This document shows positions 1-56,840 of a stretch of 64,000 nucleotides of DNA, one piece after another; positions within the stretch are counted from its first letter, which is position 1; the number at the start of each line of letters is the position of its first letter. Where the stretch lies: the NCBI GenBank assembly GCA_018062825.1, contig JAGORL010000002.1, forward strand, positions 1,629-65,628, given 5' to 3'. A program made the translations under genes and the position numbers. The notes under the pieces are model-generated. The model did not search any database, was not told where the DNA came from, and saw nothing but the letters and a program-made list of their open reading frames with translations. Source of the DNA: Patescibacteria group bacterium (GTDB lineage: Bacteria > Patescibacteriota > Patescibacteriia > UBA9934).

Positions 1-145
1 TACCATCGCCCACGACAACAAGCGGCGCGTCGTGATACCGAGCGAGCATGATGCCCTTGAACAGACGACCGTACCAAATCTCCTCATTGCCAGCGGCGTT
101 CTTGTAGTGTGGTGCCGCCGGAACCACGATAACCTTGCGTGACAC
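1..145 (-). CDS. partial CDS (N-terminal part only; gene continues beyond window start), unknown function
   Basis: Minus-strand frame reads (GTG)SRKVIVVPAAPHYKNAAGNEEIWYGRLFKGIMLARYHDAPLVVVGDG... and stays open to the window edge. The GTG start at 145 is preceded by AGGAG. Confidence 0.4.
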   Translation of the reverse strand, partial: MSRKVIVVPAAPHYKNAAGNEEIWYGRLFKGIMLARYHDAPLVVVGDG

Positions 146-200
146 GAGAGTCTCCTGAAGTGAAGTGAGGGATCTTGAGGCCCGCATGTCGACATACGAG

Positions 201-308
201 CCAAAACCCCCCACCTCACCTCCGGCCCCAACGTAGTCCGGCTCTGCCGGACGAAGTGGACCTACTCCCTATCCCCTAACCCCTATACCCTATTCCCTAA
301 TCCCTCCC
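201..308 (-). repeat. composite intergenic repeat: conserved hairpin module (227-269) plus C-rich CCCTAA/CCCTAT tract (264-308), G-rich on the sense strand
   Basis: A related copy lies at 38243-38348. The hairpin arm GTCCGGCTCTGCCGGAC differs from GTCCTCAAGGAC in the second copy but keeps its pairing. The 13-mer CCGGCTCTGCCGG recurs at 24594-24606. Confidence 0.6.
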
Positions 309-6395: not shown

Positions 6396-8048
6396 CTACA
6401 CAACATTTCCTCCAAAAGCCCCCAAAAGCGCATCGACCGTATTTTCTACCTGTTCACGCTTTTGAAGTACCACCTCAAGGTGAACCGGGCGCATCACAAT
6501 CGTCTCAATGCCCGCACATACCATAAGAGACGTTTTATTATCCTTGAACTTCTCAGCGTGAATAGCGTACGGAACCTCCAAGATAATACGACCTCCGGAA
6601 ACATCCGCAACCGTTGCTGTCTTCATAAGAAGCGAAACAGCCACGCTCTTCTCAGCAACAACACTAATACAGCGCCCCCACTTATCCTTAACGTCATCAA
6701 GCGTAAGCGCAGGTAGTTCAGCGCCATCAGCCGAACTAACGACAGGCTGCCTTGGCGAGCTCTCTTCTACCAGCTTGGAGCCATTTGGCGCACTTGGCGG
6801 CAAGACGGCTCTATTGGTCGGCTTTGCAAATGACGGCATCGGGGCACGCGCAGGAGCGGCGGGAGCAGCTACAGCGGCTGGCGCAGGCTGCGGCGCACGA
6901 ACAACTGGAGCCACAACAGGTGCCGACGGTGTTGCAATAGGAGCAACTGCTGCAACCGGAACGACTGGATAACAAAACCGTACAAAAGCAATCTCAAGCG
7001 GCGCTTGCGGCAAATTACCAAGCGTGGACCTAAAACGCGCCTCTAAAACAAGATCGAGGAGCGATCCAATCTCAGCCGGTTTCAAAGCCTTACTCGCCTC
7101 AGTTTGCGAGCGTCCAAGTTCAGGATCAGCGGATAAAGACGCTTGATCGCCAAGAGAAATATAAAGGGTGTCACGCACCGCCTCCGCAAGTTCATCCGCT
7201 AAATGCTTACAATTACCACCAGATTCCGTGAACGCCAAAAGCTCATTCATCGCTCCATACGCCTCGCGCTTACTTAAAGCTCGCAAGATACCAGCGATCG
7301 TTCGGGCCGCACTTTGCGGTAACAACAAAGAGGCTGTGCTCATGCCAATATGCTGCTCACCGAGTGCTAACAGCTGACCAAATAAACTCTCCGCATCACG
7401 CAAACAACCCTCAGAGCTCTTCGCAATTGCGGCAGTAACGTCATCATCCACCGTCACCGCTTCAGAAGCAGCAATCTTCTGCAAGCGCTTCATGATCTCA
7501 ACCTCTGGAATACGACGAAAATCAAAACGCTGACAACGAGAAAGGATGGTAGCCGGAATTTTATGCAATTCCGTAGTCGCTAAAATAAAAACGGCATGCT
7601 TTGGCGGCTCCTCGAGTGTTTTCAAAAGGGCATTAAACGACGACGTTGATAGCATGTGTACCTCGTCGATGATGAAGACCTTGAATTTAGCGGTGGTTGG
7701 AGCAAACCGTACGTTCTCGATGATATTTTCACGAACATTATCAACACCGGTCTGCGAAGCGGCATCAACCTCCAAAATATCCATCGCTCGACCCTCCTGA
7801 AAGGCCACACACTGCGCACAAGCGCCACAAGGCTCAAACTCCCCCTGCCCCTTACCCTCACACTGCACTGACTTAGCCAAAAGTCGGGCGATCGTGGTTT
7901 TACCCACACCGCGCGGGCCAGCAAAAAGATAGGCCTGGGCGGTTTTTCCCGAGGCAATTTGATTAGTAACTGTACGAATAACATGCTCTTGTTCGCTAAC
8001 ATCAGCGAAACGTTGAGGTCGGTATTTTCGGTAGAGTGCTTCAGCCAT
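6396..8048 (-). CDS. dnaX: DNA polymerase III subunit gamma/tau
   Basis: YRPQRFADV, GPRGVGKTT, Zn-module CxxC..C, DEVHML, and a Pro/Ala-rich linker. Confidence 0.9.
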   Translation of the reverse strand: MAEALYRKYRPQRFADVSEQEHVIRTVTNQIASGKTAQAYLFAGPRGVGKTTIARLLAKSVQCEGKGQGEFEPCGACAQCVAFQEGRAMDILEVDAASQTGVDNVRENIIENVRFAPTTAKFKVFIIDEVHMLSTSSFNALLKTLEEPPKHAVFILATTELHKIPATILSRCQRFDFRRIPEVEIMKRLQKIAASEAVTVDDDVTAAIAKSSEGCLRDAESLFGQLLALGEQHIGMSTASLLLPQSAARTIAGILRALSKREAYGAMNELLAFTESGGNCKHLADELAEAVRDTLYISLGDQASLSADPELGRSQTEASKALKPAEIGSLLDLVLEARFRSTLGNLPQAPLEIAFVRFCYPVVPVAAVAPIATPSAPVVAPVVRAPQPAPAAVAAPAAPARAPMPSFAKPTNRAVLPPSAPNGSKLVEESSPRQPVVSSADGAELPALTLDDVKDKWGRCISVVAEKSVAVSLLMKTATVADVSGGRIILEVPYAIHAEKFKDNKTSLMVCAGIETIVMRPVHLEVVLQKREQVENTVDALLGAFGGNVV

Positions 8049-8470: not shown

Positions 8471-8547
8471 ACCCCTTCTTGCCCTCCACCTTCACCCCTC
8501 CTCCCTTCACCCTTCCGCCCTTCCTCCTTTCCACCCTTCCGCCCCCA
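8471..8547 (-). repeat. G-rich (sense-strand) purine repeat tract, GGCGGAAGGG / GGAAAGG units
   Basis: Minus strand reads GGGGGCGGAAGGGTGGAAAGGAGGAAGGGCGGAAGGGTGAAGGGAGGAGGGGTGAAGG. It starts at the TAG stop of the upstream ATPase gene. Confidence 0.6.
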
Positions 8548-11088
8548 CTACCCCATCGGCGGCTTCACCGGTGGAGCCACTGGACGTGCCTTGTTCATAC
8601 CCGAACGCTCCATAATGTCTCGCTCTACGATCGATTTATCCTGACCGTACTGCAAACGAGAGATCTCCTTAAGAGCATCACCAACCCGGCGGTTACCTTT
8701 CTCAATCGGAATCGCCTTCATGGTAAACGGCTTAGCCTGGGCGTTCTCAATGATCATCTTCACGTTCCAGGTGTACATGTCGGTATTCATGAGGTCATAG
8801 CCGCTAAAAGTTGGAGCAAACACCTTCTCGAGTGTTTCAACATCTTCCGGACCAACACGCGCCACAAACATGTTTCCAACGTTACCCAAAACTGCATCAC
8901 GGATCTCACTCTTCCCATCTTTCACAAGCTGACCCATGTACTGGTGCGCCAAAATCATGTTCAAACGATACTTACGCGCCTCAGACAAAATCGTGGCAAT
9001 ACTTGGGGTAATAAAGTTCTGGAACTCGTCGATATACAGGTAAAAGTCATGGCGTTCACTCTCTGGAATATCAGCACGTGAAAAGGCTGCCATCTGCAAC
9101 TTAGCCACAAGAATCAAACCAAGAAGCGAAGCATTCACTTCACCGGTCTTACCCTTAGAAAGATTAACGAGCAAAATCTGCTTCTTATCCATGATTTCAC
9201 GGAAATTGAAAGCACTCTTTTGCTGACCAATAATGTTACGCATCATCTCGTTCTCCACGAAGCGACCAACCTTAGAAACCAAGTAACCCATCATTTCACT
9301 CTTATGGTAGTCGCTCGTTTTAGCCATCTCATCCTCCCAGAACGATCGAACAACCGGATCCTTTACCTTGGAAACCCATTCCTTCTGGAAAGCTTCATCA
9401 GCAATCATGCGTGGAATTTCTACAATCGTTCCTGGATTCTGCACATCAGCCATCAAGGTCAACATGTAGTTACGCATGTTGTGTTCAAACATCGGACCGA
9501 TCATTTCCGGTGGGAACAACATGTAGAAAATGCTAATCATTTCCTGCACCACGAAATCGCGCATCTCATCATTTGGTGATTCAAGCATGTTCAAACCCAT
9601 CGGACGCTCAAGGTCTGACGGATTGAAGTAAACAACGTCATCAATACGATTCTTTGGAATGAGCTCAAGAACGCCGTCAGCCAAATCTCCGTGCGGATCA
9701 ATAATACAAACACCTTTGCCGTTTCGAATATCCTGTACGGCCATGTTCTTAATAAACTCCGATTTACCGGAACCCGTTTTACCAATGATGTACATGTGAC
9801 GTCGGCGGTCACTATCTGTCATGTGAATATCAGTACGCACACCCCGATACTCGTTATAACCAACGAGGAGCCCTTCTTTAGGAATGTTTGTTGGAGCAGG
9901 CTGAGTACGCGCAAGCATCCAGCGAATGTTTGGTGTTTCAGTACTAGCAAGCGGCAAGTGCCACAAACTCGCTAACTCTTCAGTGTTAGCGATCAAACGG
10001 TGGCTGTCATCAAACAAGCGGAAAATAAACTCATCAATAATCTTACGCTTAGTGCGAGGAATGCTCTTTTCAAACGAATTGCCGTATTCGTAAATACTGT
10101 ACTGAGAAAAAGCCTGCAAAACGTTACCAAGATACGCTTGAGCCATGTCTGCGGTCTGCGCGGAAGCAACAATGCGAATATTCACCTCAAGCGCTGCCTT
10201 AGTCATCTTGTTCTCAATGCCCTCAAGCATCTTTGTTTCAGCAGCAGACAACCGGCGCTCTCGGCGTTTTGCAGCCTGCTTCTCAATATCTTCCTTAGAA
10301 GACATCCAGCCAGCTTTGGTAGCCCCCGTTTTCGCCTCCTCAAGTGTCATGCCCGCCTGCATGTTGCGCACGATCTTTGAACCAAATGCTCGCCAATCAC
10401 TTGCGGCCGGACGCACCAAAAACTGCACCGCTACGCCATCGGTCTCAAGCACTTTTGATAGTGCATTAGTAAGCGCGTTAACCGGATCACCCTCAATCTC
10501 TTTAAAGGTTTTAATCGGGAAAGCATTTTCACGCTTAAACTTCACGTGACCAGCCACGGTAACGCCGGTTGGTGAAAAAATATTGTAATCAACGATCTCC
10601 TCAAGGTAGGCATCGCTCCATTGTGCATGAAGTTGCTGTTCAAAAAATTCCTGATGCTTCTTCGGAACCGTAACGTAAAACGTAACCAACTTCTCATGTG
10701 CAACAAGTTCAAAAGCAAAAACATCATTCCTGCCTTTAAGCCAAGCATTAAAACCCTTCTCAGGCTTCAAGCCGCCAATCGCGGCATAGAGCGTTTCTGC
10801 AATAGCGATCTTCTCTTTAATAGTTGCCGGCGTATCATTTTGCCGCGCCTCGTCCTGATTTTTATAACGAGGAATAGTCACACGCAACGTCACCTGGGCA
10901 TTCTCACCACCTTTAGCACGCGCCGAACGCATAGCCCGAGCTCGCCAATAGAAAACAAAACCAACCAAGCATCCGACCACCGCCAAAACCGCAGCTAGGA
11001 AAAGAAAAAGGAGCGCTATTGGATCAAGACCAGCGCCGACCGTTGTTTCAAGATCCGTTCCTCCAAGGATTTGCAACATAATCACCAT
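8548..11088 (-). CDS. membrane-anchored FtsK/HerA/TraD(VirD4)-superfamily P-loop ATPase (DUF87/TraG-D_C-like)
   Basis: N-terminal TM segment; Walker A YIIGKTGSGKSEF; Walker B FYLYIDEFQNF; RKYRLNMILAHQYMGQL ... VLGNVGN motif typical of TrwB/TraD coupling-protein ATPases. Confidence 0.7.
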   Translation of the reverse strand: MVIMLQILGGTDLETTVGAGLDPIALLFLFLAAVLAVVGCLVGFVFYWRARAMRSARAKGGENAQVTLRVTIPRYKNQDEARQNDTPATIKEKIAIAETLYAAIGGLKPEKGFNAWLKGRNDVFAFELVAHEKLVTFYVTVPKKHQEFFEQQLHAQWSDAYLEEIVDYNIFSPTGVTVAGHVKFKRENAFPIKTFKEIEGDPVNALTNALSKVLETDGVAVQFLVRPAASDWRAFGSKIVRNMQAGMTLEEAKTGATKAGWMSSKEDIEKQAAKRRERRLSAAETKMLEGIENKMTKAALEVNIRIVASAQTADMAQAYLGNVLQAFSQYSIYEYGNSFEKSIPRTKRKIIDEFIFRLFDDSHRLIANTEELASLWHLPLASTETPNIRWMLARTQPAPTNIPKEGLLVGYNEYRGVRTDIHMTDSDRRRHMYIIGKTGSGKSEFIKNMAVQDIRNGKGVCIIDPHGDLADGVLELIPKNRIDDVVYFNPSDLERPMGLNMLESPNDEMRDFVVQEMISIFYMLFPPEMIGPMFEHNMRNYMLTLMADVQNPGTIVEIPRMIADEAFQKEWVSKVKDPVVRSFWEDEMAKTSDYHKSEMMGYLVSKVGRFVENEMMRNIIGQQKSAFNFREIMDKKQILLVNLSKGKTGEVNASLLGLILVAKLQMAAFSRADIPESERHDFYLYIDEFQNFITPSIATILSEARKYRLNMILAHQYMGQLVKDGKSEIRDAVLGNVGNMFVARVGPEDVETLEKVFAPTFSGYDLMNTDMYTWNVKMIIENAQAKPFTMKAIPIEKGNRRVGDALKEISRLQYGQDKSIVERDIMERSGMNKARPVAPPVKPPMG

Positions 11089-11649: not shown

Positions 11650-13038
11650 CTATACCCTATTCCCTTCCTTCACCCTCTGCCCCTCAGCTGTATCCTCAAC
11701 CACAAACCCAAGTTCGGCAATTGCATCACGCAATCTATCTGAAGCTGAAAAATCTTTGTTAGATCGAGCGGCGGCACGTTCATCAAGTAGTGCCTGCACA
11801 CTTGGCGGCACAAGTACCGGTCGCGCGACCACGTCATCAAGCGTCAAACCAAGCACTTCATCAAAAGCCAAAAGAGTAGCGGCTTTAGTCGAACTAACAA
11901 CATTTGCGTCACTAACAAGCTCCCACAAGACCGCCAAAGCCCCTGGCGTATCAAGGTCATCGCTAACGCGTGCCATAAAGCGATCAACGTACCCAGTATC
12001 AGGAGTACTTGGCTTTTCAAGCGTACGAGCAAGATCGATCAAGCGATTTAGTGCTTGATGAGAAGCGCCAAGCGCTTCAAACGTAAAGTTCTGCGGGGTT
12101 CGGTAATGCGCCTGCAAAATAAAGTAACGGAAATCGAACGGGGAAAAACCCTTAGCTTCAAGATCATCAAGAGAGTACGTATTTCCAAGCGATTTACTCA
12201 TCTTGCCGCCATCAACCAGTAAAAACTCATTGTGCATCCAAAGGTTTGCCTCCAAAACTCCACGAGCACCAAGGGTTTGCGCCAACTCATTCTCATGATG
12301 CACCGCAATGTGATCAATGCCACCCGTATGAATATCAAAAGGAACGCCTAAATACTTCTCCCCCATGGCTGAACACTCAATATGCCAACCCGGAAAACCC
12401 TTACCCCATGGCGACTCCCACTCCATATGACGCTTCTCGCCAGCCGGTGAAAACTTCCACAAGGCAAAGTCAGCGGCACTACGCTTACCATCGGTCTCAA
12501 CACGAGCTCCCCCTTCTTTCTCCTCCATCTTCTGCCCAGAAAGCTGGCCGTACTCCGGCAGCTTGGCAACATCAAAATAAATGCCGTCATCCGTGCGGTA
12601 CGTAAAACCATTCTTCTGAAGCTCTTCAACCATGGCAATCTGCTCAGCAATATGATCAGTAGCCTTAGGAATAACGGTTGGCATCAGATTGTTCACTCGA
12701 CGAATATCGGCAAGAAAAAGTTTAGTGTATTCGTCAGCAATATCCCACGCCGTTTTACCCTTCTTCTTGGAAGCAACCTCAAGCTTATCCTCGCCGCTTG
12801 ATGCGTCATCAGTTAAATGACCAACATCCGTAATATTCATGACCGCCGTCACCGCAAAACCATTCTTTTCTAGTGTACGTCGTAAAAGGTCAGCAAAAAT
12901 AAATGATCGCAAATTTCCGATGGAAGCTCGATCGTAAACCGTTGGTCCACAAGAATACATTCCGACCTTGCCCGGTACCTGAGGAGTAAAAATCTCTTTT
13001 TTGCGACCAAGGGTATTGAAAAATGCGATGACATGCAT
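11650..13038 (-). CDS. cysS: cysteine--tRNA ligase
   Basis: YSCGPTVYD, HIGH-like and KMSKS motifs. Start set at the internal Met (MHVIAFFNTLGRKKEIF). The C-terminal GNRV-stop is encoded by the G-rich repeat. Confidence 0.85.
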   Translation of the reverse strand: MHVIAFFNTLGRKKEIFTPQVPGKVGMYSCGPTVYDRASIGNLRSFIFADLLRRTLEKNGFAVTAVMNITDVGHLTDDASSGEDKLEVASKKKGKTAWDIADEYTKLFLADIRRVNNLMPTVIPKATDHIAEQIAMVEELQKNGFTYRTDDGIYFDVAKLPEYGQLSGQKMEEKEGGARVETDGKRSAADFALWKFSPAGEKRHMEWESPWGKGFPGWHIECSAMGEKYLGVPFDIHTGGIDHIAVHHENELAQTLGARGVLEANLWMHNEFLLVDGGKMSKSLGNTYSLDDLEAKGFSPFDFRYFILQAHYRTPQNFTFEALGASHQALNRLIDLARTLEKPSTPDTGYVDRFMARVSDDLDTPGALAVLWELVSDANVVSSTKAATLLAFDEVLGLTLDDVVARPVLVPPSVQALLDERAAARSNKDFSASDRLRDAIAELGFVVEDTAEGQRVKEGNRV

Positions 13039-13088
13039 AGATGTCAGCACAGTAACAGGGGCAACACACTTCATCAAATTCCCTGCCC

Positions 13089-13131
13089 ACAAAAAGAAGA
13101 CCCACCCTCGCCGTTTGGCAAAAGGTGGGTC
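13089..13131 (-). terminator. terminator of GC-rich cassette a1 (GACCCACC ... GGTGGGTC + UUCUUUUUG)
   Basis: Read directly. Confidence 0.6.
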
Positions 13132-13140
13132 GCGCGGTCA

Positions 13141-13704
13141 TCACCACGTGATGCCCACAGAAGCACCCTGGTACTCGGTACCCGTATCCACCCGCCAGCG
13201 AGGGATATCATCCCCCTCAGCGAAGGGCGAGAAGTCGATCCCGCGCTCAGTGCCACCCTGGAGTCCGAAAGCCAGATGCATCGGGAACACGACCACGGTC
13301 GTGACCACACGCTGCTGACCCGCAAACATCACCGGGCGACCAATGAGGTGAAACGGTGAGACACCGAGGTCGCTCGCGGCCACAACGAGCACGCGCGAGA
13401 ACTCCGGAAACGCCGCCGCTACGGCATTAACCGAAACTCCCTGAACGCTGTCCCGCTTCAAGTAGCGCGGCACCTCCACATCCGCCCCCACTGAGCAGTG
13501 AGGACCCTTGAGACGCATGCGACGCTCGACAAACGACCGCCTCACAACGCTCAGAACCGACCACTGCGGCACGAGCACCTGGTTCAAGGGAACGAACAAC
13601 CCATCAGCCTCCTTGCCGAGACCGGCGTAGAGAAAACGACGTCCAAACTCCTGGTGCAGGAGCACGTGCCCGAACAAGAAACCTTCTTGACCATCGTCGC
13701 TCAT
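13141..13704 (-). CDS. hypothetical protein, GC-rich cassette a1
   Basis: Start at MSDDGQEGF preceded by CTTGGAGGTG. The strongly GC-rich segment yields spurious antisense ORFs. Confidence 0.5.
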   Translation of the reverse strand: MSDDGQEGFLFGHVLLHQEFGRRFLYAGLGKEADGLFVPLNQVLVPQWSVLSVVRRSFVERRMRLKGPHCSVGADVEVPRYLKRDSVQGVSVNAVAAAFPEFSRVLVVAASDLGVSPFHLIGRPVMFAGQQRVVTTVVVFPMHLAFGLQGGTERGIDFSPFAEGDDIPRWRVDTGTEYQGASVGITW

Positions 13705-13745
13705 CTCACCTCCAAGGCGACAAGGTAGCGTAACAAAAAACACAA
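13705..13745 (-). promoter_or_regulatory. conserved cassette leader, copy a1 (CGCTACCTTG ... CTTGGAGGTG-ATG)
   Basis: Shared with leaders at 14447-14510, 20870-20898 and 45758-45813. Confidence 0.45.
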
Positions 13746-13792
13746 CAAAAAGCAAACAAAAGACTCGCCGCCCCTTCCGCAGCCGCGGAAGG
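13745..13792 (-). terminator. terminator of cassette a2 (CCTTCCGC-GGCT-GCGGAAGG + U-rich)
   Basis: 8-bp stem followed by a long T-rich run on the minus strand. Confidence 0.55.
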
Positions 13793-13810
13793 TAACGACG
13801 AGCCAGCGCC

Positions 13811-14446
13811 TCACCCGGACACGAACCGATCAACGACATCGGGTCCCTCCACGTGCCTCAGGAAGAGCGGATGAACCTGTTCGTTACGGTCGTACTGGGG
13901 CACCACAACGAACTTGCGAGTACCATCACCGTTTGCGCCCCACAGGTACAAACCGGCCTTGCGCTCCCCGTGATCACGTTCCACCTTGCGGTCGAACACG
14001 ATCGCGAAGCACTTGAGCACGTAGCGAACGCTGTGCGGATCACGCTCGAGGCGCACCAGCCGACCAAGTGACGAGAGCGGAAAGCGCGGCTCGCGCAGTA
14101 CGCCACGCAGAAGGTCGCGTCCCGTCGGCGTTGCCGCATCAAGGAAGCGTCGCCAGATATGCACGTAGGCTTCGTCATCACGCGGCAAAGCCACGATCTC
14201 GAAGCTCTGGAAAGGCTGCTCCACGCCGTTGATGGCAAAGTAGCTGCCACCGGCATCGATGAAACACTCCCGATCCGGATAGCCCGGCAAGGCTGCCGCC
14301 CGAAAGCGATCAATGCCATGCTCGGTACCCACCCGGGTGACAAAGGCCGCCACCACAGAACCACTCTCTTCCCCACGACCGTACACGACGATCGCGCTTG
14401 CTGCCGGGGCCTCACGGCCACGAGAGCTAGGCCGACTTTGACCCAT
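13811..14446 (-). CDS. hypothetical protein, GC-rich cassette a2
   Basis: Start at MGQSRPSS with RBS GGAGGGG. The alternative-frame ORF 13858-14421 has an implausible composition. Confidence 0.5.
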   Translation of the reverse strand: MGQSRPSSRGREAPAASAIVVYGRGEESGSVVAAFVTRVGTEHGIDRFRAAALPGYPDRECFIDAGGSYFAINGVEQPFQSFEIVALPRDDEAYVHIWRRFLDAATPTGRDLLRGVLREPRFPLSSLGRLVRLERDPHSVRYVLKCFAIVFDRKVERDHGERKAGLYLWGANGDGTRKFVVVPQYDRNEQVHPLFLRHVEGPDVVDRFVSG

Positions 14447-14510
14447 GACCCCTCCAGTCCTCGGGATGAATTCCCGCGCCAAGGTTAGATGAAAAATGAC
14501 AAAAACGCAA
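14447..14510 (-). promoter_or_regulatory. conserved cassette leader, copy a2 (TTGCGT-17-TAACCT; CTAACCTTGGC; ACTGGAGGGG-ATG)
   Basis: Aligned by eye with three other copies. Confidence 0.45.
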
Positions 14511-15578: not shown

Positions 15579-15803
15579 TTATTCATCAGCCTCACCGGCA
15601 CCACAATCTTCACAGTCGTCACAACAACGATCAGTATCAGACTCTTCATCGCAACAATCACAACTTTCACCACAGCTCACCTTTCCGCCATTCCCCCCTT
15701 CCGCCATTCCGCCTTTCTTCACAGGCATAGCGCAAACGCCATCATGACAGGTGGCCTTTGGTGCTTCTTTCTTTGCCCCAAACACTGACGAAAGCCATGA
15801 CAT
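15579..15803 (-). CDS. Cys/Asp-rich microprotein (74 aa), hypothetical
   Basis: [74 protein letters not shown]. It lies 5 nt upstream of dnaJ. The middle part is encoded by a GGCGGAAGGG-type repeat. Confidence 0.45.
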
Positions 15804-19422: not shown

Positions 19423-20152
19423 AGGTTAGAGCTTGAGGTTCAATAAGACGTTTGGCGTGCATGAGAAGCGCGGCGTTATGCGCATAATCCATACGCATCG
19501 GCCCAACAATGCCCATCACACCTCTACCACCGTCTGGCAACGTATGCCCGATAACAACCGAGGCGAGCGCCGGACCAAACGGACTGTCACTCCCTAAAAT
19601 GATCTGCACATCCTCACGCGTAGTTTTAGCCATGCCGCGCAAGGTGGCATCAAGCTTCTCAAGTGAGTCAGCGAGCGCGAGGCGCGCCTGTACCTCTTGA
19701 AAGTCCGGCTTACGCAAAAGGTTAGCGATGCCGACCGTTTCACTCCACGGCCGAGTAGTAGCAAGCATAACTGCGTCTCCGGAGGCCTGCGCAAGCGCAA
19801 GACCGATTTCATGCATGCGCTCTTCAGAACTTTTCTGCCGAGGCTGAATTCTGAGCGTCACCCGGATCTGCACCGCCGGACGTGCCGGCTTAGTAGCTGT
19901 ACCGGTTGCGGGACCTACATAGGAAGCAATGTAATGCTTGTAGGCCTTCTCAGTTGGCACACGGCCAGCCGAGGTATGTGGCTGCGCAATGTACCCAGCC
20001 TCCTCAAGGGCTGCCATGTCATTACGAACCGTGGCGGGCGAGCAATCAAGATCAGCCCGTTCACAGACCTGTTTGGAACTCACAGGCTCGGCGGTACGCA
20101 CGTACTCGTCCACGATGCACTTGAGAATTCGTTCTCGTCTGGAATCCATCAT
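19415..20152 (-). CDS. hrcA: heat-inducible transcription repressor HrcA
   Basis: N-terminal wHTH ([21 protein letters not shown]) with an HrcA C-terminal domain; operon context. Confidence 0.9.
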
Positions 20153-20161
20153 AAAAGGATA

Positions 20162-20188
20162 TTAGCACTCGGTATTATAGACTGCTAA
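20162..20188. promoter_or_regulatory. CIRCE operator (TTAGCACTC-N9-GACTGCTAA)
   Basis: One mismatch to the consensus inverted repeat; directly upstream of hrcA. Confidence 0.8.
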
Positions 20189-20201
20189 ATCGGAACGTCA
20201 A
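20174..20201 (-). promoter_or_regulatory. sigma70-like promoter of hrcA operon (TTGACG-17-TATAAT), -10 inside CIRCE spacer
   Basis: Read on the minus strand. Confidence 0.6.
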
Positions 20202-20204
20202 GTG

Positions 20205-20244
20205 TATAAAAAGAGGCCCCGTGAAGCGCGTGCTTCACAGGGCC
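20205..20244 (-). terminator. terminator of GC-rich cassette b (13-bp stem with 1 mismatch + UCUUUUUAU)
   Basis: GGCCCTGTGAAGC-ACGC-GCTTCACGGGGCC on the minus strand. Confidence 0.6.
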
Positions 20245-20251
20245 TTGAGGG

Positions 20252-20869
20252 CTACCGCACAACCGAGACCGTGAGAGCGATCTCGTTGTTGCAGGGGCGT
20301 GGCATCCCCAGACCGACGTAGCTACTAGCGTCGAAGGAGATCGCCGCCCCGCCTTCGAAGATGAAGAGTGCTCGTTGCCCAGCCTCGATCTCGCCAGAAG
20401 TCGGTGGGCACTCCAGGCTCCTGGCCTCGTAGTCGAACCACTCCAGAGTCGCGGTTCGACCACGCAATCGGATGCGCGGGCCGTCGATCTGAGTGACGAG
20501 GACACGTTGATCGTCGTGCGCTACGAAGCGCGGGATAACCATGTGCGCCCCTCGGCGCATGATGTAGGTGATGCCGATGCCGTGGAAGTCCTCCGGCTTC
20601 GGCAGGTGAATCACCCGCTGCTTGGGAACCGCGAGCTCGAGCACGAGCTCGTACTGCACACCGGAAGACGTACGCCTTCCTTGCCGCTGTCGGCGACGCT
20701 GAGAACGAACCTCCTTGCCCTGGGCAGACTCTCCGTCGATCACCCGGACACGGAAGCTGATGATCCGGTGGATCATCGCCAGTTGATCATAGGCCCCGCA
20801 CCGTGCGTAAGGCCCCTCCTTGCTGTTGCTCGACCCTGTGGAATCACGGGTCGCTGGCATGCCACACAT
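20252..20869 (-). CDS. hypothetical protein, GC-rich cassette b
   Basis: Start MCGMPATRD preceded by ACTGGAGGG; no recognisable domain. Confidence 0.5.
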   Translation of the reverse strand: MCGMPATRDSTGSSNSKEGPYARCGAYDQLAMIHRIISFRVRVIDGESAQGKEVRSQRRRQRQGRRTSSGVQYELVLELAVPKQRVIHLPKPEDFHGIGITYIMRRGAHMVIPRFVAHDDQRVLVTQIDGPRIRLRGRTATLEWFDYEARSLECPPTSGEIEAGQRALFIFEGGAAISFDASSYVGLGMPRPCNNEIALTVSVVR

Positions 20870-20898
20870 TGGCCCTCCAGTAAGGCCAAGGTTAGCGG
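20870..20898 (-). promoter_or_regulatory. conserved cassette leader, copy b (TTGCGC-17-TAACCT; CGCTAACCTTGGCC; ACTGGAGGG-ATG)
   Basis: Aligned by eye with the other copies. Confidence 0.45.
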
Positions 20899-20931
20899 AA
20901 AAACAAAAAGAGCGCAAGACCGCGCTCTTTC
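20898..20931 (-). terminator. terminator of PP2C gene (AAAGAGCGC-GGTCTT-GCGCTCTTT + UUGUUUUU)
   Basis: Read directly. Confidence 0.75.
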
Positions 20932-20935
20932 TAAC

Positions 20936-22768
20936 TTAACTCGCTTTTTGAAAGGCTTGAACCGCAGCTTTTTTAGCAGCCGCGACATCAGTTACTGTAG
21001 ATTCTTGAGCCTTTTGGCGCTGTAATTCAACAATATACGCCATCTGCTCTCTATTAAGGCTTGGGTGCGGCTTAGACCAGCGCCCTTTAGGGTCAAGTGT
21101 GCCGGAATCCACTAAATGCTGCCGCCACTGCTCCCAAGTATCAGCCTCATCTTCAGCATTGTTCTTTTCACCAACTTCCACCTCATTACCAAGCGCCTCA
21201 ATATTGGCCTCATCGAGCTCTTCAAGCTCCTCAGGTAAAGCTGAGGCGCGCATACGCTCAACGGACACCTGACCAACCGGAACGTCACGTCTTAGCGCCT
21301 CTTGCAGCTTACTTGCGGCCAACGAAGAATCCCCCGCCCGAGAACGGCGCTTACGAACCGCTGCTCCAACAACAGCGGACGTATCATCCGGCTTACTACG
21401 ATCATTTTTCTCATCCTTTTCAATACTCACCGCCAGTTCTTGAAGTAGGCTCTCAGCAAGAAGTGGATTGCCTTCGCTCTTCTGCATCACTTCCTCCATC
21501 TGCTTGCGAGTAGCGTTGTCATGAACGCCATCTGAAGTAATAACAAACCGCTGGCCAGGCTCAAGATCGACCCACAAAATATCAGAATTCTTTGGATTCT
21601 CTGGATCAAATTTTAAATCTTCTATTTTAGATGTACCAGAACCTATCGCTTCAGTAATAACGTTTCGCTTACCGACAAATTCTTTCTGCCGCTCAGTGAG
21701 TGCATTGTAATCAGTGTACTGATCAAGCGCGTCTAAATCTTCTGGGGTAAGTTTCGTTGGTAATTCAATAGCTCTGTTTAAAACCTTAACCAAACGATCC
21801 GCCTTATCAGCGTCAATCTCGCGTTTGGCAGCATCCGTAAGAAAACGGACATCTGACTCTGACAGGCCCCGTGGATCAGCTAAGAATGACGATAGAGCAG
21901 ACTGAATTTCAGCCGAAGAAACACTGTCACCCTTACGACCCGCCGCCATCTGCTTTAACTTCTCAAGCCCACTGACTACATCTAGATCAAGCGGCACATC
22001 ACGAAATGTCTCATTCTCTGCCCGCAACCGATTATCGTCCTCGGTCAGCGTCACAAGTGACCCATCTTCATTTTCAAGATAGACACGACTGTCACCTATG
22101 CTCGTGTAATACAAACGCATCTTGCCGTCAGGCATTTCAACGAGCTTGGCAAGTGAAAGCGTAGTACATGCCCCACGATACTCTGGATTAACTTTTTGAA
22201 TTTTCTCAACTGCTTCATTGGAGTCTCGAACACTCTCCTGCATGGCCTTAGCCACGGCTTCATTAATCCAATCTTCATCCCCCTCAGAAAGCTGGGACGC
22301 CTTCTCAAGAACAGCATCAAGCTTCTCACCCATGCGATCAGCAACCACGCGACTCGTAATCTCAGAGGCAATGGCGCCGTGACCCGAGGACACGCCATCC
22401 ATCACCGCATACAAACCACGTTCTGGATCGTTGATCTTGCGATCATCACAACGGTTCTTGGGCTTCTCTAAAGTTTTCTCACCAATAACGCGGCGTTCAA
22501 AACCCTTCACTTCATCAACACCAACGTTCACAATGTCACGAGCCGCAACCTCTGGCGGTAGCACAGCCTCAATATCTTTAGCAGCTTGCTCCCACTCCCC
22601 CTCCTTCCAAAGCTTCTCCATCTTGGCCTTTTGCGCAACAACCCAATCCTTCGGTTTCTCGACCGGCTTTACCTGCTCAACCTTAACAGTCGGCTGAGGT
22701 GCCTGCTCTTTTTTTGGCGCTCCGTAGCCCATCATGCCACGAGCTCGTTCCATCATTGATCCGATCAT
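20936..22768 (-). CDS. PP2C-family Ser/Thr phosphatase domain protein with long N- and C-terminal extensions
   Basis: GLYAVMDGVSSGHG, GACTTLSLA, IGDSRVYL, ITSDGVHD. Confidence 0.75.
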   Translation of the reverse strand: MIGSMMERARGMMGYGAPKKEQAPQPTVKVEQVKPVEKPKDWVVAQKAKMEKLWKEGEWEQAAKDIEAVLPPEVAARDIVNVGVDEVKGFERRVIGEKTLEKPKNRCDDRKINDPERGLYAVMDGVSSGHGAIASEITSRVVADRMGEKLDAVLEKASQLSEGDEDWINEAVAKAMQESVRDSNEAVEKIQKVNPEYRGACTTLSLAKLVEMPDGKMRLYYTSIGDSRVYLENEDGSLVTLTEDDNRLRAENETFRDVPLDLDVVSGLEKLKQMAAGRKGDSVSSAEIQSALSSFLADPRGLSESDVRFLTDAAKREIDADKADRLVKVLNRAIELPTKLTPEDLDALDQYTDYNALTERQKEFVGKRNVITEAIGSGTSKIEDLKFDPENPKNSDILWVDLEPGQRFVITSDGVHDNATRKQMEEVMQKSEGNPLLAESLLQELAVSIEKDEKNDRSKPDDTSAVVGAAVRKRRSRAGDSSLAASKLQEALRRDVPVGQVSVERMRASALPEELEELDEANIEALGNEVEVGEKNNAEDEADTWEQWRQHLVDSGTLDPKGRWSKPHPSLNREQMAYIVELQRQKAQESTVTDVAAAKKAAVQAFQKAS

Positions 22769-24565: not shown

Positions 24566-24871
24566 AAATACGGCCTTATCGTCTAGCGGCTATCCGGCAA
24601 AGCCGGACCCGGCTCTGCCGGGGGACGTCATATGTACATCGTCTATATACTTTCGTCCGAAAGCAATAATCGCTGGTACATTGGAATGACTGCAGACATT
24701 AAGGTTCGTTTAGGTGAACACAATGCAGGTCGCGTGCGCTCCACAAAGCCATATGTTCCGTATCGCATTATTTATACGGAAACATATCCAGACAAAACAA
24801 CTGCGCGGAAAAGAGAGATTCAGATTAAAAAATCTGGATTAATCCGCAAGCAGTTAAAAGACAGGATTACC
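24566..24871 (+). mobile_element. 306-bp GIY-YIG mini-element inserted at the 5' end of tRNA-Glu, bounded by 26-bp direct repeats (24566-24591 and 24872-24897)
   Basis: The repeat AATACGGCCTTATCGTCTAGCGGCTA covers the first 21 nt of the tRNA. Two tandem hairpins (TCCGGCAAAGCCGGA, CCCGGCTCTGCCGGG) precede the ORF. Confidence 0.45.
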
Positions 24872-24898
24872 AATACGGCCTTATCGTCTAGCGGCTAG
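24632..24898 (+). CDS. GIY-YIG nuclease family protein (small, YhbQ/UPF0213-like)
   Basis: MYIVYIL ... WYIGMT ... R ... EHN ... motif set. The stop codon TAG lies inside the D-arm of tRNA-Glu. Confidence 0.8.
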   Translation: MYIVYILSSESNNRWYIGMTADIKVRLGEHNAGRVRSTKPYVPYRIIYTETYPDKTTARKREIQIKKSGLIRKQLKDRITNTALSSSG

Positions 24899-24951
24899 GA
24901 CGGCACCCTCTCACGGTGCAGACCCGGGTTCGATTCCCGGTAAGGTCACCA
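24877..24951 (+). tRNA. tRNA-Glu (anticodon CUC)
   Basis: Acceptor GGCCTTA/TAAGGTC (one G-U), anticodon stem GCACC/GGTGC, loop CTCTCAC, T-arm CCGGG-TTCGATT-CCCGG, CCA encoded. Confidence 0.85.
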
Positions 24952-24983
24952 AAAAACCACTTCAGCCATGAAGTGGTTTTTTG
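24952..24983. terminator. bidirectional terminator (AAAAAACCACTTC-AGCCAT-GAAGTGGTTTTTT)
   Basis: Read directly. Confidence 0.8.
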
Positions 24984-25003
24984 TTATCTCGTATTATGAA
25001 GTG

Positions 25004-43657: not shown

Positions 43658-44527
43658 CTATTGATTGAACACGACATTAGCCTCGTACTCCTGCCCTGAC
43701 TCATTAGCTTCGATTGTAAGACGGGCTCGATCCCCAGTTGGCAGCAAGAAATCAATACCTGAAGCCGTGGTTACGATGTTAGAAAACAGCGGTGTCGTCA
43801 TCTGGCCGTCAACATCAATACATGGCACCCGTTTTGCAATCGGAAGTGCAAAAACGAGTGGCACCACCTGCGTCGAGATCGATGAACTTAATACAACTCC
43901 TGACACCTCCGCTGTCGCGCCTTGCTCTTGTGAACATTCCTCCGTCACATATAAATCAACCGTATCGTGCGCAGGATAAAGAATCGCGTTGAATTTTATC
44001 TTCTCTAAGCCCCAACCCCTCTCAGAACGCATCCTTAGGACATCGAATCCCGATTGATCAAATGCAATTTCAAGATATTCGCCCACCTCTGGAGCACCAT
44101 TCCACATTGAAAATGTATGCGAACCATCTTCATTTTTTACAAAACCAAAAACTTTTCTAATCGGACTCAATGCAACAGTATAAACAACCTCCTCTTCACC
44201 GTTTTGAATATTTTTACGATTAAGTTGATATAAATATCCCCCATCATTCTCAACTACCTCGTCAGAAAAGAAAAATTCACCAATACTATATTCGAGACCT
44301 CGAATCTCATTCTCAACATTCAAGATAGCGTTCTCTTGCTTAAGAATTTCGTTTTCAATGCCGACGGCATGCATCCTCTCGCCCATAGCGCCCAAGCTCT
44401 CACGAAGATAGATAGTTACAAAAATCAAAACAAGTACCGCAGCAGCTGTCGACAAAAAAGCTAATAACAAAGCAACAGACACCCCGAGCAAACCGTTGCT
44501 CTTCTTTACCACTTTTTTGTTCGCCAT
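43658..44527 (-). CDS. hypothetical membrane-anchored protein with coiled-coil segment
   Basis: 289-aa ORF. Confidence 0.45.
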   Translation of the reverse strand: MANKKVVKKSNGLLGVSVALLLAFLSTAAAVLVLIFVTIYLRESLGAMGERMHAVGIENEILKQENAILNVENEIRGLEYSIGEFFFSDEVVENDGGYLYQLNRKNIQNGEEEVVYTVALSPIRKVFGFVKNEDGSHTFSMWNGAPEVGEYLEIAFDQSGFDVLRMRSERGWGLEKIKFNAILYPAHDTVDLYVTEECSQEQGATAEVSGVVLSSSISTQVVPLVFALPIAKRVPCIDVDGQMTTPLFSNIVTTASGIDFLLPTGDRARLTIEANESGQEYEANVVFNQ

Positions 44528-44542
44528 ATTATCAACGAGTAT

Positions 44543-44582
44543 AACAGAAAACGACCCCCGCTCCAGGTGAGCTAGGGGTCGT
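44543..44582 (-). terminator. terminator of GC-rich cassette c (ACGACCCC ... GGGGTCGT + UUUUCUGUU)
   Basis: Read directly. Confidence 0.6.
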
Positions 44583-44590
44583 GAGTGGGT

Positions 44591-45757
44591 TTACGCCGCC
44601 GCGATGATCGGCTTCACCGCGTTGTAGACCGCCTTGGCGTTCAGACCAGGCCGAGCGAGCTCGCCCTGGAGAACCATGAACTGACCGCGCATGCCAGGCA
44701 GAACCGGGCGCTCGAAGTCGTCGTCCGTGAGGTCGGTCGAACCAAGCGCGTAGGCGATGTCGCCGGCAGTCGCGATCGCGTTGCGGCGATCGATGTCAGA
44801 GAGCGGCTGATCACGCTCCTTCGCGACCGAGGCGACGGTGAGCACTTCGTCGAGACTCTCGCGGATGGCGAGGATCTCGAGCGAACGACGCACCTTGTCG
44901 ACGTGCACGAACGCCGTGATGAGATCACCGGTCTTGATCGCCTCGATGGCGATCTTGAGGTCGATCACGTCACGCACGAACGAGCGGCGGCCGTCCGGAG
45001 CGATCACGATCGCGTTCAGGATGGCGACCTGCGCCTCGAACTGCTGCACGTAGTAGCTCTGGGTCTTGAGCTTCTCCGGCTCACGGCGCCAGCGCAGGAA
45101 CGCCTGCGTGACCCGCATGAGCTCCGAGCGTACTCCATCGAGCTGATCGCGGATGGCGAGCAGCACACGGGCGCGGACGTCGATGAACGCCCCGATCCGC
45201 CGCATGTTGCCCTTGCGAGTCGCGAGACGGTGCTCCGCCGACCAGATGATCGGCAGCCGAGACATCGGGTTCACCCGCTTGATCGAATCCTTCGGAAGCG
45301 CCGCCCGACCGGTCTGGTCGCGCGCGTACATCTTCGATTCGTCACGGAAGTGCGGGTGCTTGGCGTAGAAGTCCTCCATCTGCCGCCGCACCATGTTCTG
45401 TTCGTCGATCGGCAGGCGCTGCAGATCGACGAACACCGAGTACCCCCACGCGAGGGTGCCGAGCCACGCCTTGATCTGCGTCTCCTCGTCCTCGTAGCTG
45501 TTCGGCACGTGCCGGGCAACCGCGCGGATCGCCGAGTACAGACCATCGTTGTACGTGGAGAAGGCGCCGCTCTCCTGGTTGTAGAGGAGCACAGCACCCT
45601 TCTTGATCTCCCCCGCCGCCACCGCGGCAATGAGCACACGCCCCGGCAGGGGCTCCTTCACGGCGAGGGCCACATCGCCCTCCTTGACCGTGATCTTTCG
45701 CTCGACGATCTGCCCGTTTCCGGGGATTCGACCGTCAGTACCAGTACGCACGTCCAT
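44591..45757 (-). CDS. hypothetical protein (388 aa, largely helical), GC-rich cassette c
   Basis: Minus-strand frame has a protein-like composition. The plus-strand 395-aa ORF is an R/D/L/H-rich antisense artefact. Confidence 0.5.
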   Translation of the reverse strand: MDVRTGTDGRIPGNGQIVERKITVKEGDVALAVKEPLPGRVLIAAVAAGEIKKGAVLLYNQESGAFSTYNDGLYSAIRAVARHVPNSYEDEETQIKAWLGTLAWGYSVFVDLQRLPIDEQNMVRRQMEDFYAKHPHFRDESKMYARDQTGRAALPKDSIKRVNPMSRLPIIWSAEHRLATRKGNMRRIGAFIDVRARVLLAIRDQLDGVRSELMRVTQAFLRWRREPEKLKTQSYYVQQFEAQVAILNAIVIAPDGRRSFVRDVIDLKIAIEAIKTGDLITAFVHVDKVRRSLEILAIRESLDEVLTVASVAKERDQPLSDIDRRNAIATAGDIAYALGSTDLTDDDFERPVLPGMRGQFMVLQGELARPGLNAKAVYNAVKPIIAAA

Positions 45758-45813
45758 GCCACCTCCAAGTGATTGGCGGCTGAAAGGTTAGCGAAATTTT
45801 AGAACTTTGTCAA
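45758..45813 (-). promoter_or_regulatory. conserved cassette leader, copy c (TTGACA-17-TAACCT; TCGCTAACCTTTC; CACTTGGAGGTGGC-ATG)
   Basis: Aligned by eye with the other copies. Confidence 0.45.
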
Positions 45814-45816
45814 CGT

Positions 45817-45841
45817 AAAAGACCGCCTAGGCGGTCTTTTA
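45817..45841. terminator. bidirectional terminator (AAAAGACCGCC-TA-GGCGGTCTTTT)
   Basis: Follows mltG on the minus strand. Confidence 0.75.
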
Positions 45842-45848
45842 CATCTTC

Positions 45849-54566: not shown

Positions 54567-54703
54567 GACGGTTGTGGTTATTCCGCCACGAGCCATTGCC
54601 CCAAACATTGGCAGTGGTTCACGGCGGGGGAAGTATTCCAAAAGGGGGACATTGCGCAGATAACGCAATTCGGGCACCCCCATAAGTGCTTACAGGCATT
54701 CTA

Positions 54704-54732
54704 CTTCCCCACTTCTCCCCACGCAACCCCAC
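54704..54732 (-). promoter_or_regulatory. three direct GTGGGG repeats at 10-bp periodicity (candidate MraZ boxes) within a G-rich mraZ leader
   Basis: Minus strand reads GTGGGGTTGC GTGGGGAGAA GTGGGGAAG. Confidence 0.5.
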
Positions 54733-54800
54733 AAACAACCACTTATACACATCTAATGCCGCCCCTTCCCCCTTTCCGCCTTTCCACCTACACTCTCCAC

Positions 54801-56345: not shown

Positions 56346-56375
56346 AAAGCACGCGACCAAAAGTCCGTGCTTTTG
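56346..56375 (+). terminator. terminator (AAGCACG-CGACCAAAAGTC-CGTGCTTTT)
   Basis: Read directly. Confidence 0.6.
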
Positions 56376-56401
56376 ACTTTTTGGCTAAAATTTGCTATAA
56401 T
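56373..56401 (+). promoter_or_regulatory. sigma70 promoter TTGACT-17-TATAAT followed by RBS GGAGGA
   Basis: Near-consensus; drives the 56425 ORF. Confidence 0.65.
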
Positions 56402-56424
56402 AAAGAGGTTGCCTGGAGGACAAG

Positions 56425-56790
56425 ATGACCCTTTTTCTGCTCTTTTTCGCCTGTATCATCCCCCCACAGGAAGATCTCACCACTGCTACGTCACCGGCCG
56501 CCAAGACCAAAGCGGAGCCGACTGCCGAAGTCATCGATCACAAACCCATCGGTAAGATCGCCTGCGCCGAGATGGAGCGCGTCACCTGGAAGGGTGACGT
56601 CTGGCTTACCGGAGGCGATGAACCTACCCTCGCCTACATCGAAGAGGTCGCAGATGGGAAGAAAGTGGCCTGTGCCCTCGCCTGGCCATTTCGCCACCCG
56701 AAGTTCGCGGAGTTCTCCTTCTGCGAGAAGCGAAGCGGGCGTGGCGAATGCATCACCGTGCACCCCGAGCTCGAGACGCTCGACGAATAA
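56425..56790 (+). CDS. putative lipoprotein, hypothetical
   Basis: Signal-like N-terminus ending in FFAC (lipobox-like). Confidence 0.45.
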   Translation: MTLFLLFFACIIPPQEDLTTATSPAAKTKAEPTAEVIDHKPIGKIACAEMERVTWKGDVWLTGGDEPTLAYIEEVADGKKVACALAWPFRHPKFAEFSFCEKRSGRGECITVHPELETLDE

Positions 56791-56803
56791 ACTCTGCAAC
56801 ACA

Positions 56804-56840
56804 AACGCCCGACGGCTATCCGTCGGGCGTTCATCTTTTT
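56804..56840. terminator. bidirectional terminator (AACGCCCGACGG-CTAT-CCGTCGGGCGTT + CATCTTTTT)
   Basis: 12-bp perfect stem. Confidence 0.8.

Follow-up and report, generated by a model that had tools for sequence, protein, structure and literature searches.

GC-rich single-gene units between core operons of a Patescibacteria chromosome and their likeness to phage morons

Bacterial orphan genes are usually AT-rich, and in the model of Lawrence and Ochman horizontally acquired islets are said to undergo amelioration. The closest described counterpart of the genes considered here is the moron of phages HK97 and HK022 (Cumby, Davidson and Maxwell 2012, PMC3594210): one open reading frame (ORF), lodged between two genes, that brings along a promoter and a factor-independent terminator of its own. 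A moron deviates in G+C content (GC) from the genes on either side, and its expression does not depend on them (PMC3594210). In gene transfer agents (GTAs), an energy-cost effect that favours cheap amino acids raises GC at codon positions one and two (GC1 and GC2), not at position three (GC3) (PMC7360931). Here we analyse a 64,000-nucleotide stretch of a Patescibacteria chromosome (assembly GCA_018062825.1, contig JAGORL010000002.1), hereafter the window, in which two tandem GC-rich genes, a2 and a1, lie between dnaJ and cysS, and three more, c3, c4 and c5, lie in other intergenic slots. An original prediction had likened a1, a2, c3 and c4 to acquired expression cassettes of an architecture for which it knew of no named element; the phage moron is a named element of that architecture. 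With a probability of roughly 0.55, we read these genes as moron-like, autonomous, monocistronic units that are vertically inherited and restricted to their lineage, and whose high GC is maintained at least in c4.

Composition, coding status and expression signals

Counted in 500-nt windows, GC is 0.58-0.62 across 13001-14500 and 0.46-0.51 on both flanks, which bears out the original description of this segment as richer in GC than its surroundings. Further rises occur at 19501-21000, 44501-46000 and 56501-57000. For the 49 core genes of the window, mean GC is 0.485 (standard deviation, sd, 0.032) and mean GC3 is 0.467 (sd 0.048). Relative to these genes, the GC3 of the five units (0.68-0.86) corresponds to z = 4.5-8.2 and their GC to z = 3.3-5.0 (4.0-5.0 for a1, a2, c3 and c4). 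Values of GC1/GC2/GC3 are 0.69/0.44/0.71 for a1, 0.71/0.47/0.68 for a2, 0.64/0.49/0.75 for c3 and 0.67/0.41/0.86 for c4. The fifth unit, c5, had been missed by the original prediction and turned up in a screen of all window ORFs for high GC3. A GC-rich ORF that is cut by the window edge may be part of a sixth (Table 1).

The minus-strand frames first proposed for these genes show a coding-type codon-position pattern, in which GC3 is high and GC2 lowest. Full-length antisense ORFs, such as that at 44585-45772 (plus strand, 395 residues), show the mirror image of this pattern; neither they nor the alternative frames have a Pfam match, and ORFs of this length are the expected by-product of high GC3, as had been supposed. 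For comparison we used a sister species (run SRR17347193) that is 82-86% identical to the window in nucleotide sequence across core regions, with about 1 substitution per synonymous site (dS) in core genes. Ratios of nonsynonymous to synonymous rates (dN/dS) fall below 1 against the orthologues in this species, and the frames therefore code for protein. We take a1, a2, c3, c4 and c5 all to be protein-coding genes.

These results also bear on the possibility that the segments are chimeras of assembly or binning, or non-coding DNA with chance ORFs. The genome is metagenome-assembled, and high-GC DNA produces long ORFs on both strands. However, the same junctions are present in independent assemblies, namely a 197.7-kb NCBI contig and the Logan contig L001 (99.9% identical), and again in the second species, and both the codon-position pattern and dN/dS values of 0.2-0.3 mark the genes as coding. 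Independent assemblies and substitution pattern together refute an artefact, for which we allow a negligible chance. The NCBI contig (locus tags KBC55_) annotates a2, c3, c4 and c5 as hypothetical proteins, some with shorter starts.

Candidate promoters lie ahead of the units (Table 1). Upstream of a2, c3 and c4, a -35-like TTGCGT, TTGCGC or TTGACA is followed after exactly 17 nt by TAACCT, as first described. The a1 leader carries GCTACCTT in place of a TAACCT-type -10, with an ambiguous -35; at the same position the sister species has TTGTCA, 17 nt and TGCTAGTCT. In c5, TATAAT is followed by CTGGAGGA ahead of the ORF. Sites of the form TTGNNN-17 nt-TAnnnT ahead of the five units are kept in the sister species. 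The leaders also share sequence. The two strands of the window (128 kb together) contain four copies of the 8-mer CTAACCTT; a GC-rich ORF lies 19-35 nt downstream of three of them. The a2 and c3 leaders, anchored at the -10, are 69% identical over 42 nt and have an 11-mer and a 9-mer in common (CTAACCTTGGC and ACTGGAGGG), CTTGGAGGTG is common to the a1 and c4 leaders, and CTAAAATTT to the c4 and c5 spacers.

A GGAGG Shine-Dalgarno (SD) motif is present in all five units, with duplex energies of -9.3 to -10.6 kcal/mol, and a stable hairpin with a T-run lies beyond each of them (-22.9 to -32.9 kcal/mol by RNAfold). What the leaders have in common is GGAGG and, in some of them, CTAACCTT and the k-mers given above. 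As to the short variable hairpin that the original prediction had included in the leader, hairpins in the 5′ untranslated region (5′-UTR) are weak and their shape differs in the sister species, on which grounds a conserved 5′-UTR hairpin was ruled out. The leaders have no Rfam family match. Between the two species, leaders are 88-96% identical (88% for a2, 49 of 51 nt for c3, about 90% for c4), whereas the four-fold degenerate sites of the same genes are only 39-63% identical (47% for a2); the leaders are therefore constrained.

Table 1. Coordinates and properties of the GC-rich units in the window (position 1 is its first nucleotide)
Feature	Position	Strand	Properties
a2 leader	14447..14510	-	-35 TTGCGT (14505-14510), 17-nt T-rich spacer, -10 TAACCT (14482-14487); candidate promoter
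a2 SD	14450-14457	-	CTGGAGGG, in 5′-UTR
a2 ORF	13811..14446	-	211 aa, predicted soluble, Arg-rich, pI 8.6; GC 0.621, GC3 0.679
a2 intrinsic terminator	13749..13805	-	Predicted; stem 13783-13767; -32.9 kcal/mol (RNAfold)
a1 leader	13705..13748	-	T-rich tract; -10-like GCTACCTT (TACCTT 13722-13727)
a1 SD	13709-13713	-	GGAGG, within CTTGGAGGTG
a1 ORF	13141..13704	-	187 aa, predicted soluble; GC 0.613, GC3 0.713
a1 intrinsic terminator	13089..13135	-	Predicted; -27.5 kcal/mol (RNAfold); cysS leaderless-type promoter next
c3 leader	20870..20917	-	-35 TTGCGC (20912-20917, within the PP2C gene terminator), -10 TAACCT (20889-20894); candidate promoter
c3 SD	20874-20878	-	GGAGG, within CTGGAGGG
c3 ORF	20252..20869	-	205 aa, conserved Arg-rich patch, pI 9.6; GC 0.626, GC3 0.752
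c3 terminator	20214-20245	-	Predicted; hairpin and T-run
c4 leader	45758..45813	-	-35 TTGACA (45808-45813), -10 TAACCT (45785-45790); candidate promoter
c4 SD	45762-45766	-	GGAGG, within CTTGGAGGTG
c4 ORF	44591..45757	-	388 aa; GC 0.647, GC3 0.859
c4 terminator	about 44545-44585	-	Predicted; hairpin and T-run
c5 unit	56373..56840	+	TTGACT (56373-56378), 17 nt, TATAAT (56396-56401), GGAGG (56415-56419), terminator 56804-56840; candidate signals
c5 ORF	56425..56790	+	121 aa, lipoprotein-like N-terminus; GC 0.593, GC3 0.721
Possible sixth unit	1..214	-	GC 0.575, GC3 0.65; GGAGG precedes the ORF

The translation signals of the units set them apart from the core genes around them. All five units, but just two of 50 core gene starts, are preceded by GGAGG (Fisher p = 6e-6). 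GGAGG-N3-9-start meets a real gene start at seven places in the window, of which five are units. An SD-like motif in the -18 to -4 interval is absent from 43 of 50 core genes; about 5 of the 50 have one. Core transcription units mostly have a (T/C)G-n-TAnnnT element (such as GTGCTAAACT, CTGTTATACT or CTGTTACAAT) that ends 7-10 nt ahead of the ATG, often without a -35. Gene starts of the core kind include those at 11579, 13038, 43587, 44527 and 52869, several core genes having a -10 of the TGnTAnnnT type at this distance, and the cysS promoter, TTGATG-17-TACTGT, ends 10 nt before its ATG. These arrangements suggest that many core mRNAs are leaderless or near-leaderless. The hrcA promoter (20160-20201), TTGACG-16-TATAAT, is close to consensus and serves as an example of a canonical promoter in this genome; a CIRCE-like inverted repeat (TTAGCAGTC-N9-GAGTGCTAA) covers its -10 and start site.

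The original prediction had asked whether the leader is simply the organism's ordinary signal. This is so for its promoter half, since the unit -10, CGCTAACCT, fits the organism's own (T/C)GCTAnnnT class, and not for its translation half, since GGAGG is rare among core genes. The expression signals of the units differ in kind from those of the core, with an unusual translation half and an ordinary promoter half. The pairing of high GC3 with an SD motif recurs in sequence-unrelated GC-rich genes of related genomes (contigs L013, L003, L008 and L002). A literature search found nothing specific on SD motifs, leaderless genes or GC-rich orphans in Patescibacteria.

Taken together, these features support the original view of compositionally deviant promoter-SD-ORF-terminator units between core operons. 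As judged from sequence signals, each unit would combine a -35-dependent sigma-70-type promoter and a 5′-UTR of probably about 12-28 nt, in which a GGAGG ribosome-binding site lies, with an ORF restricted to the lineage and an intrinsic terminator. Its place would be in the gap that separates one core operon's terminator from the next operon's promoter; promoter use and transcript ends are likewise predicted. Such units could give insulated, SD-dependent expression to accessory proteins amid a mostly SD-less or leaderless core.

Divergence from relatives and the persistence of high GC

In the sister species, a2 and a1 follow dnaJ (contig L007), c3 occupies the space that separates hrcA from the PP2C gene (L008), and c4 comes after yceG (L002). 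Amino acid identities to the sister proteins are 48% for a1, 67% for a2, 60% for c3 and 80% for c4, with dN/dS of 0.27 (0.270), 0.21 (0.205), 0.31 (0.305) and 0.28, respectively; for most core genes the corresponding values are 89-99% and 0.01-0.06 (about 0.03). The units are fast-evolving yet under purifying selection. Positional orthologues of the units in the sister species have dS of 1.2-1.5, the same as core genes, and for c4 the window-sister dS is 0.46, well under the 0.9-2.4 of its neighbours.

The strongest evidence on the age of a unit comes from c4. A distant homologue sits in the same yceG..uvrD slot of a Patescibacteria genome of 59% GC (contigs L003-L006 and L021), where the order iPGM, HhH-GPD, PAP2, yceG, [...], c4, uvrD, malic enzyme, RskA is conserved; c4 is present in three of the three lineages examined. 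Between the window and this genome, identity is 43% for c4, 47% for YceG, 52% for UvrD and 64% for iPGM. The divergence of c4 thus tracks that of its neighbours, which argues for vertical descent. The distant c4 is again a GC outlier, with GC of 0.695 and GC3 of 0.92 against 0.57-0.59 and 0.68-0.73, and such a GC-rich gene at the same locus of a relative is what the original prediction had itself named as a sign of an ancestral gene; it speaks against recent acquisition.

Synonymous sites in c4 are saturated over this distance: at 95 four-fold sites under conserved residues, 0.41 are identical and 0.39 are expected to be. Polarising c4 substitutions with L003 as outgroup was dropped for this reason. 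GC at these sites is nevertheless 0.81 in the window and 0.92 in L003, compared with 0.38-0.47 and 0.70-0.82, respectively, in flanking core genes. Because the four-fold sites have turned over completely yet GC3 stays at 0.86-0.92, the high GC of c4 is a stationary, maintained property and not a relic of transfer.

For a2 and c3 we made a rough F81-type back-calculation, using the approximately 20-30% of four-fold signal that remains in core genes. By this rough estimate, neutral decay would need four-fold sites to have had a GC of about 0.9-1.0 when the two species separated, and is possible only if a very GC-rich donor had contributed the genes immediately before speciation.

The codon pattern of the host's highly expressed genes does not account for the high GC: dnaK and the ribonucleotide reductase (RNR) genes favour CTT, GTT, GCT, GGT and CGT, whereas the units favour CTC/CTG, GTG, GCG/GCC, ATC, AAC and TAC. 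Host translational selection was accordingly rejected as the cause: in four-fold families, the preferred codons of dnaK and RNR end in T. Energy-cost selection of the kind described for GTAs was rejected as well, because it predicts an excess in GC1 and GC2 and the excess of the units is largest in GC3. Amino acid content is shifted too, with a ratio of arginine to arginine plus lysine, R/(R+K), of 0.67-0.87 in a1, a2, c3 and c4. The candidates for what keeps GC high are gene conversion biased towards GC at accessory loci that are open to exchange, selection acting on the mRNA, and repeated re-supply from an unseen GC-rich reservoir.

Maintenance of this kind raises the alternative that the genes are native, were never transferred, and form an SD-led, -35-dependent class whose GC is held up by selection at synonymous sites or by GC-biased gene conversion. 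We consider this unlikely. In its favour, four-fold GC in c4 is stationary despite saturation, dS of c4 is reduced, and GC3 of c4 exceeds the value predicted from GC1 and GC2 by the Muto-Osawa regressions. The link between high GC and an SD motif recurs across related genomes with unrelated proteins, and the families are restricted to the lineage. Biased gene conversion predicts raised dN/dS together with raised GC, and both are seen here. Conversion-driven GC hot spots are known in bacteria (PMC7360931). The codon choice of the units, opposite to that of dnaK and RNR, leaves ordinary translational selection without explanatory power, and an energy-cost explanation meets the third-position excess described above; the shifted amino acid content and the variation in presence and absence of units also count against the idea.

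A narrower version, which we hold to be quite unlikely, posits two regimes in one genome: an SD-less or leaderless core with a minimal extended -10, and SD-led, -35-dependent orphans held at high GC3 by selection on the message. Candidate forms of such selection are condition-specific codon-biased translation, mRNA stability and escape from an AU-directed nuclease. If it were true, high GC would be the functional hallmark of a regulon-like class of genes, not a sign that they are foreign, and the CTAACCTT/GGAGG leader would be a reusable expression module for newly recruited genes.

Origin, slots and possible roles

Searches for relatives returned only the lineage itself. For a2, in searches that covered 5.8 billion proteins, these are itself and the 67% sister orthologue. 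For a1 they are a near-identical copy and the 48% positional orthologue of the sister species. Among the 5.8 billion proteins c4 has three relatives (itself, the sister orthologue and the 43% homologue), all in Patescibacteria contexts. A full HMMER scan of 1.84 billion representatives with c3 gave one relative, P0007, which is 61% identical and occupies the PP2C-hrcA slot of the sister species. Scanning metagenomes with the c4 alignment recovered only another copy of the L003-type locus, and the CTAACCTT leader is confined to the window species and its sister. The closest CysS in a one-genome-per-species GTDB set, 70% identical, comes from a genome labelled Candidatus Uhrbacteria, which places the organism in the candidate phyla radiation (CPR), with no sign of Saccharibacteria.

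As originally noted, a1, a2, c3 and c4 belong to no recognised family: there is no match in Pfam, NCBIfam, PADLOC or PHROGs, nothing better than E = 0.015 being found in PADLOC, Pfam and NCBIfam, libraries that cover described systems only. Profile-profile comparison gave no paralogy among a1, a2 and c3. No Pfam match was found for c5, no PDB sequence match for the unit proteins, and no viral, phage or plasmid match by tblastn against 50,697 phage records, IMG/VR scans or blastn against plasmids.

The slots themselves vary among relatives. In two related contigs, dnaJ and cysS are non-adjacent, with other genes between them. One (L009, 8855-9960, the Uhrbacteria-labelled relative) has an apparent extracytoplasmic function (ECF) sigma factor, recognised by eye from its sequence, and downstream of it a 205-aa gene, read as a sigma/anti-sigma pair of ordinary GC, with no GC-rich genes; the other (L013) has three different GC-rich, SD-led orphan genes, and a GC-rich ABC transporter lies just past cysS. 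The sister species has an additional GC-rich unit (L008, 5525-6392) encoding a 207-aa membrane protein, with GC3 of 0.88 and a TTGACA-17-TAATAT promoter. It is bracketed by two copies of a 30-nt terminator hairpin, AAAACCACTT(C/T)ATGGCTGAAGTGGTTTT, of which the window has one, at the empty site (24960-24995); no second insertion scar of a GC-rich unit was seen. Variation is not limited to GC-rich genes: an AT-rich (GC 0.43) orphan gene of 289 aa at 43658-44527, between c4 and uvrD, is absent in the sister species, where c4 is followed directly by uvrD.

The same regions contain other features. In L013, two copies of an element of approximately 140 bp (6585-6725 and 8505-8650; ...AGTGTCAGGTGGA...), with inverted repeats and promoter-like sites, bracket two of the GC-rich orphans, and may represent an operator-rich regulatory region or a recombination site. 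At tRNA-Glu(CTC) in the window (24600-24951), an insert of approximately 290 bp carries an ORF for an 88-aa GIY-YIG nuclease (24632-24898; Pfam E = 1e-14) and abuts the tRNA gene, 26 nt of one end of which are duplicated at its flanks. The insert is absent in sister contig L008 and looks like a small homing-type insertion. An 846-aa protein with a TrwB/TraG/VirD4-like coupling-ATPase domain (PF10412, PF12696), encoded at 8548-11088, 2 kb from a1, is conserved in L013 and L010. Short C- or G-rich tandem repeats with units such as CCTATTC, TCCACCCT and TTCCGCCA, reading GGGTTAGGG-like on the other strand, occur in intergenic or gene-end positions at 261-305, 8482-8545, 15683-15717 and 54690-54750.

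A fuller form of the original prediction takes the units for a family of recently acquired cassettes with a common leader, perhaps donated by an actinobacterial host of high GC, which a dedicated mechanism moves into intergenic spacers. High GC and the shared CTAACCTT/GGAGG leader fit such a model, as do insertion beside terminators, the duplicated terminator around the extra unit of the sister species, and the different GC-rich genes in the same slot of L013. We nonetheless judge it very unlikely. The sister positional orthologues are as diverged at synonymous sites as the core, and c4 is ancient and syntenic. The CTAACCTT leader is limited to the species pair, and its -10 belongs to the organism's own GCTAnnnT class. 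No homologue appears in the protein, phage, plasmid or viral collections searched, which leaves an actinobacterial donor without support, and the lack of flanking repeats and of a recombinase in the orthologous neighbourhoods speaks against dedicated mobility. No attC-like imperfect palindrome and no common 3′ element were found, the 3′ ends being simple terminator hairpins, and the two tRNAs of the window lie away from the units. The proposal of horizontally acquired cassettes is supported in part, by the variable slots and the extra unit of the sister species; the units are not recent.

For the moron-like reading, a horizontal origin of the units is inferred from composition and expression signals, and arrival times would differ: c4 would have come before the deep split and a1, a2 and c3 before the split from the sister species, with at least one further unit gained or lost since. 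After arrival, inheritance would have been vertical, with proteins evolving at 5-10 times the core rate while purifying selection was kept.

Several observations weigh against this interpretation. No donor or homologue was found outside the Patescibacteria lineage in either protein collection. No direct or inverted repeats, whether att-like or terminal, surround the window units, and precomputed Pfam calls show no recombinase in the orthologous neighbourhoods, the rest of the window not having been scanned exhaustively. A sigma-70 consensus scan misses the unit promoters, TAACCT and TATAAT having just 3 of 6 positions in common, and these promoters remain candidates. AlphaFold2 (AF2) models are poor, that of a2 (predicted local distance difference test score, pLDDT, 33) being unusable. 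By the rough estimate given above, it is conceivable for a1, a2 and c3 that they were acquired just before speciation from a donor whose four-fold GC was about 0.9 or more, and have been decaying neutrally. Finally, the persistent GC of c4 means that composition is no marker of transfer here, which weakens the case for a foreign origin of the other units. With respect to homologues, an old transfer may be compatible with their absence because the unit proteins evolve fast.

As regards function, a1, a2, c3 and c4 are without any hydrophobic stretch of membrane-spanning length; these four proteins look soluble, and the fifth lipoprotein-like. The AF2 model of c4 (pLDDT 55) has an N-terminal beta domain and C-terminal helical bundles, of which only the C-terminal half is confident, and fold searches with it retrieve only generic helical (four-helix) bundles. 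Because the units combine fast evolution, autonomous expression and variation in presence and absence, we infer an accessory role; interaction with hosts, phages or competitors is our guess. A more specific proposal, which we find highly improbable, is that a1 and a2 form a two-gene toxin-antitoxin or anti-phage defence module, the other units being single-gene defence or anti-defence systems. The two genes are adjacent in both species, evolve fast and occupy a variable slot. However, each has a separate promoter and terminator, 187 and 211 residues are large for a classical type II toxin-antitoxin pair, and the family searches and lack of paralogy described above lend the proposal no support.

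Comparison with described elements

Two results are of most use: SD-led units stand in contrast to a leaderless core, and high GC is maintained and not fading. On the moron-like reading, the window would be a clear example of genes accreting in moron style within the chromosome of a cell, here a reduced CPR genome. With GC3 of 0.86-0.92 in genomes of 48% and 59% GC, c4 would counter the rule that atypical GC signals recent transfer followed by amelioration. GC-rich, SD-led orphans against a largely leaderless background could flag accessory or host-interaction genes in uncultured Patescibacteria, and the same contrast could help in asking how a single cell runs two modes of translation initiation side by side.

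Integron cassettes are, like the units, small single-gene elements in intergenic arrays, a2 and a1 lying in tandem. Cassettes, however, are promoterless and come with attC and an integrase, whereas the units have a promoter-like site, a plain terminator and no integrase nearby. Unlike a classical genomic island, they lack flanking repeats, a tRNA target and a nearby integrase. They resemble ameliorating islets in that they contain orphan genes, are atypical in GC and in codon usage, and vary in presence from one relative to another; they differ in being GC-rich, and the composition of c4 outlasts complete synonymous turnover, which amelioration does not predict. The GTA clusters of Alphaproteobacteria are likewise inherited vertically, and there too a gene-specific force holds GC above the level of the host genome, but their excess lies in GC1 and GC2 and that of the units mostly in GC3 (Kogay et al. 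2020, PMC7360931).

The nearest likeness is to the phage moron: a single ORF of deviant GC with its own terminator and a promoter-like site, placed between two genes. An empty site between adjacent genes, another moron trait, was observed for the extra unit of the sister species when compared with the window; the a1/a2 slot is occupied in L009 and L013. Unlike morons, the units lie among dnaJ, cysS, hrcA, the PP2C gene, yceG/mltG and uvrD, with no phage or prophage signal. They are also stably inherited over the long term, some of them share a leader, and their composition persists.

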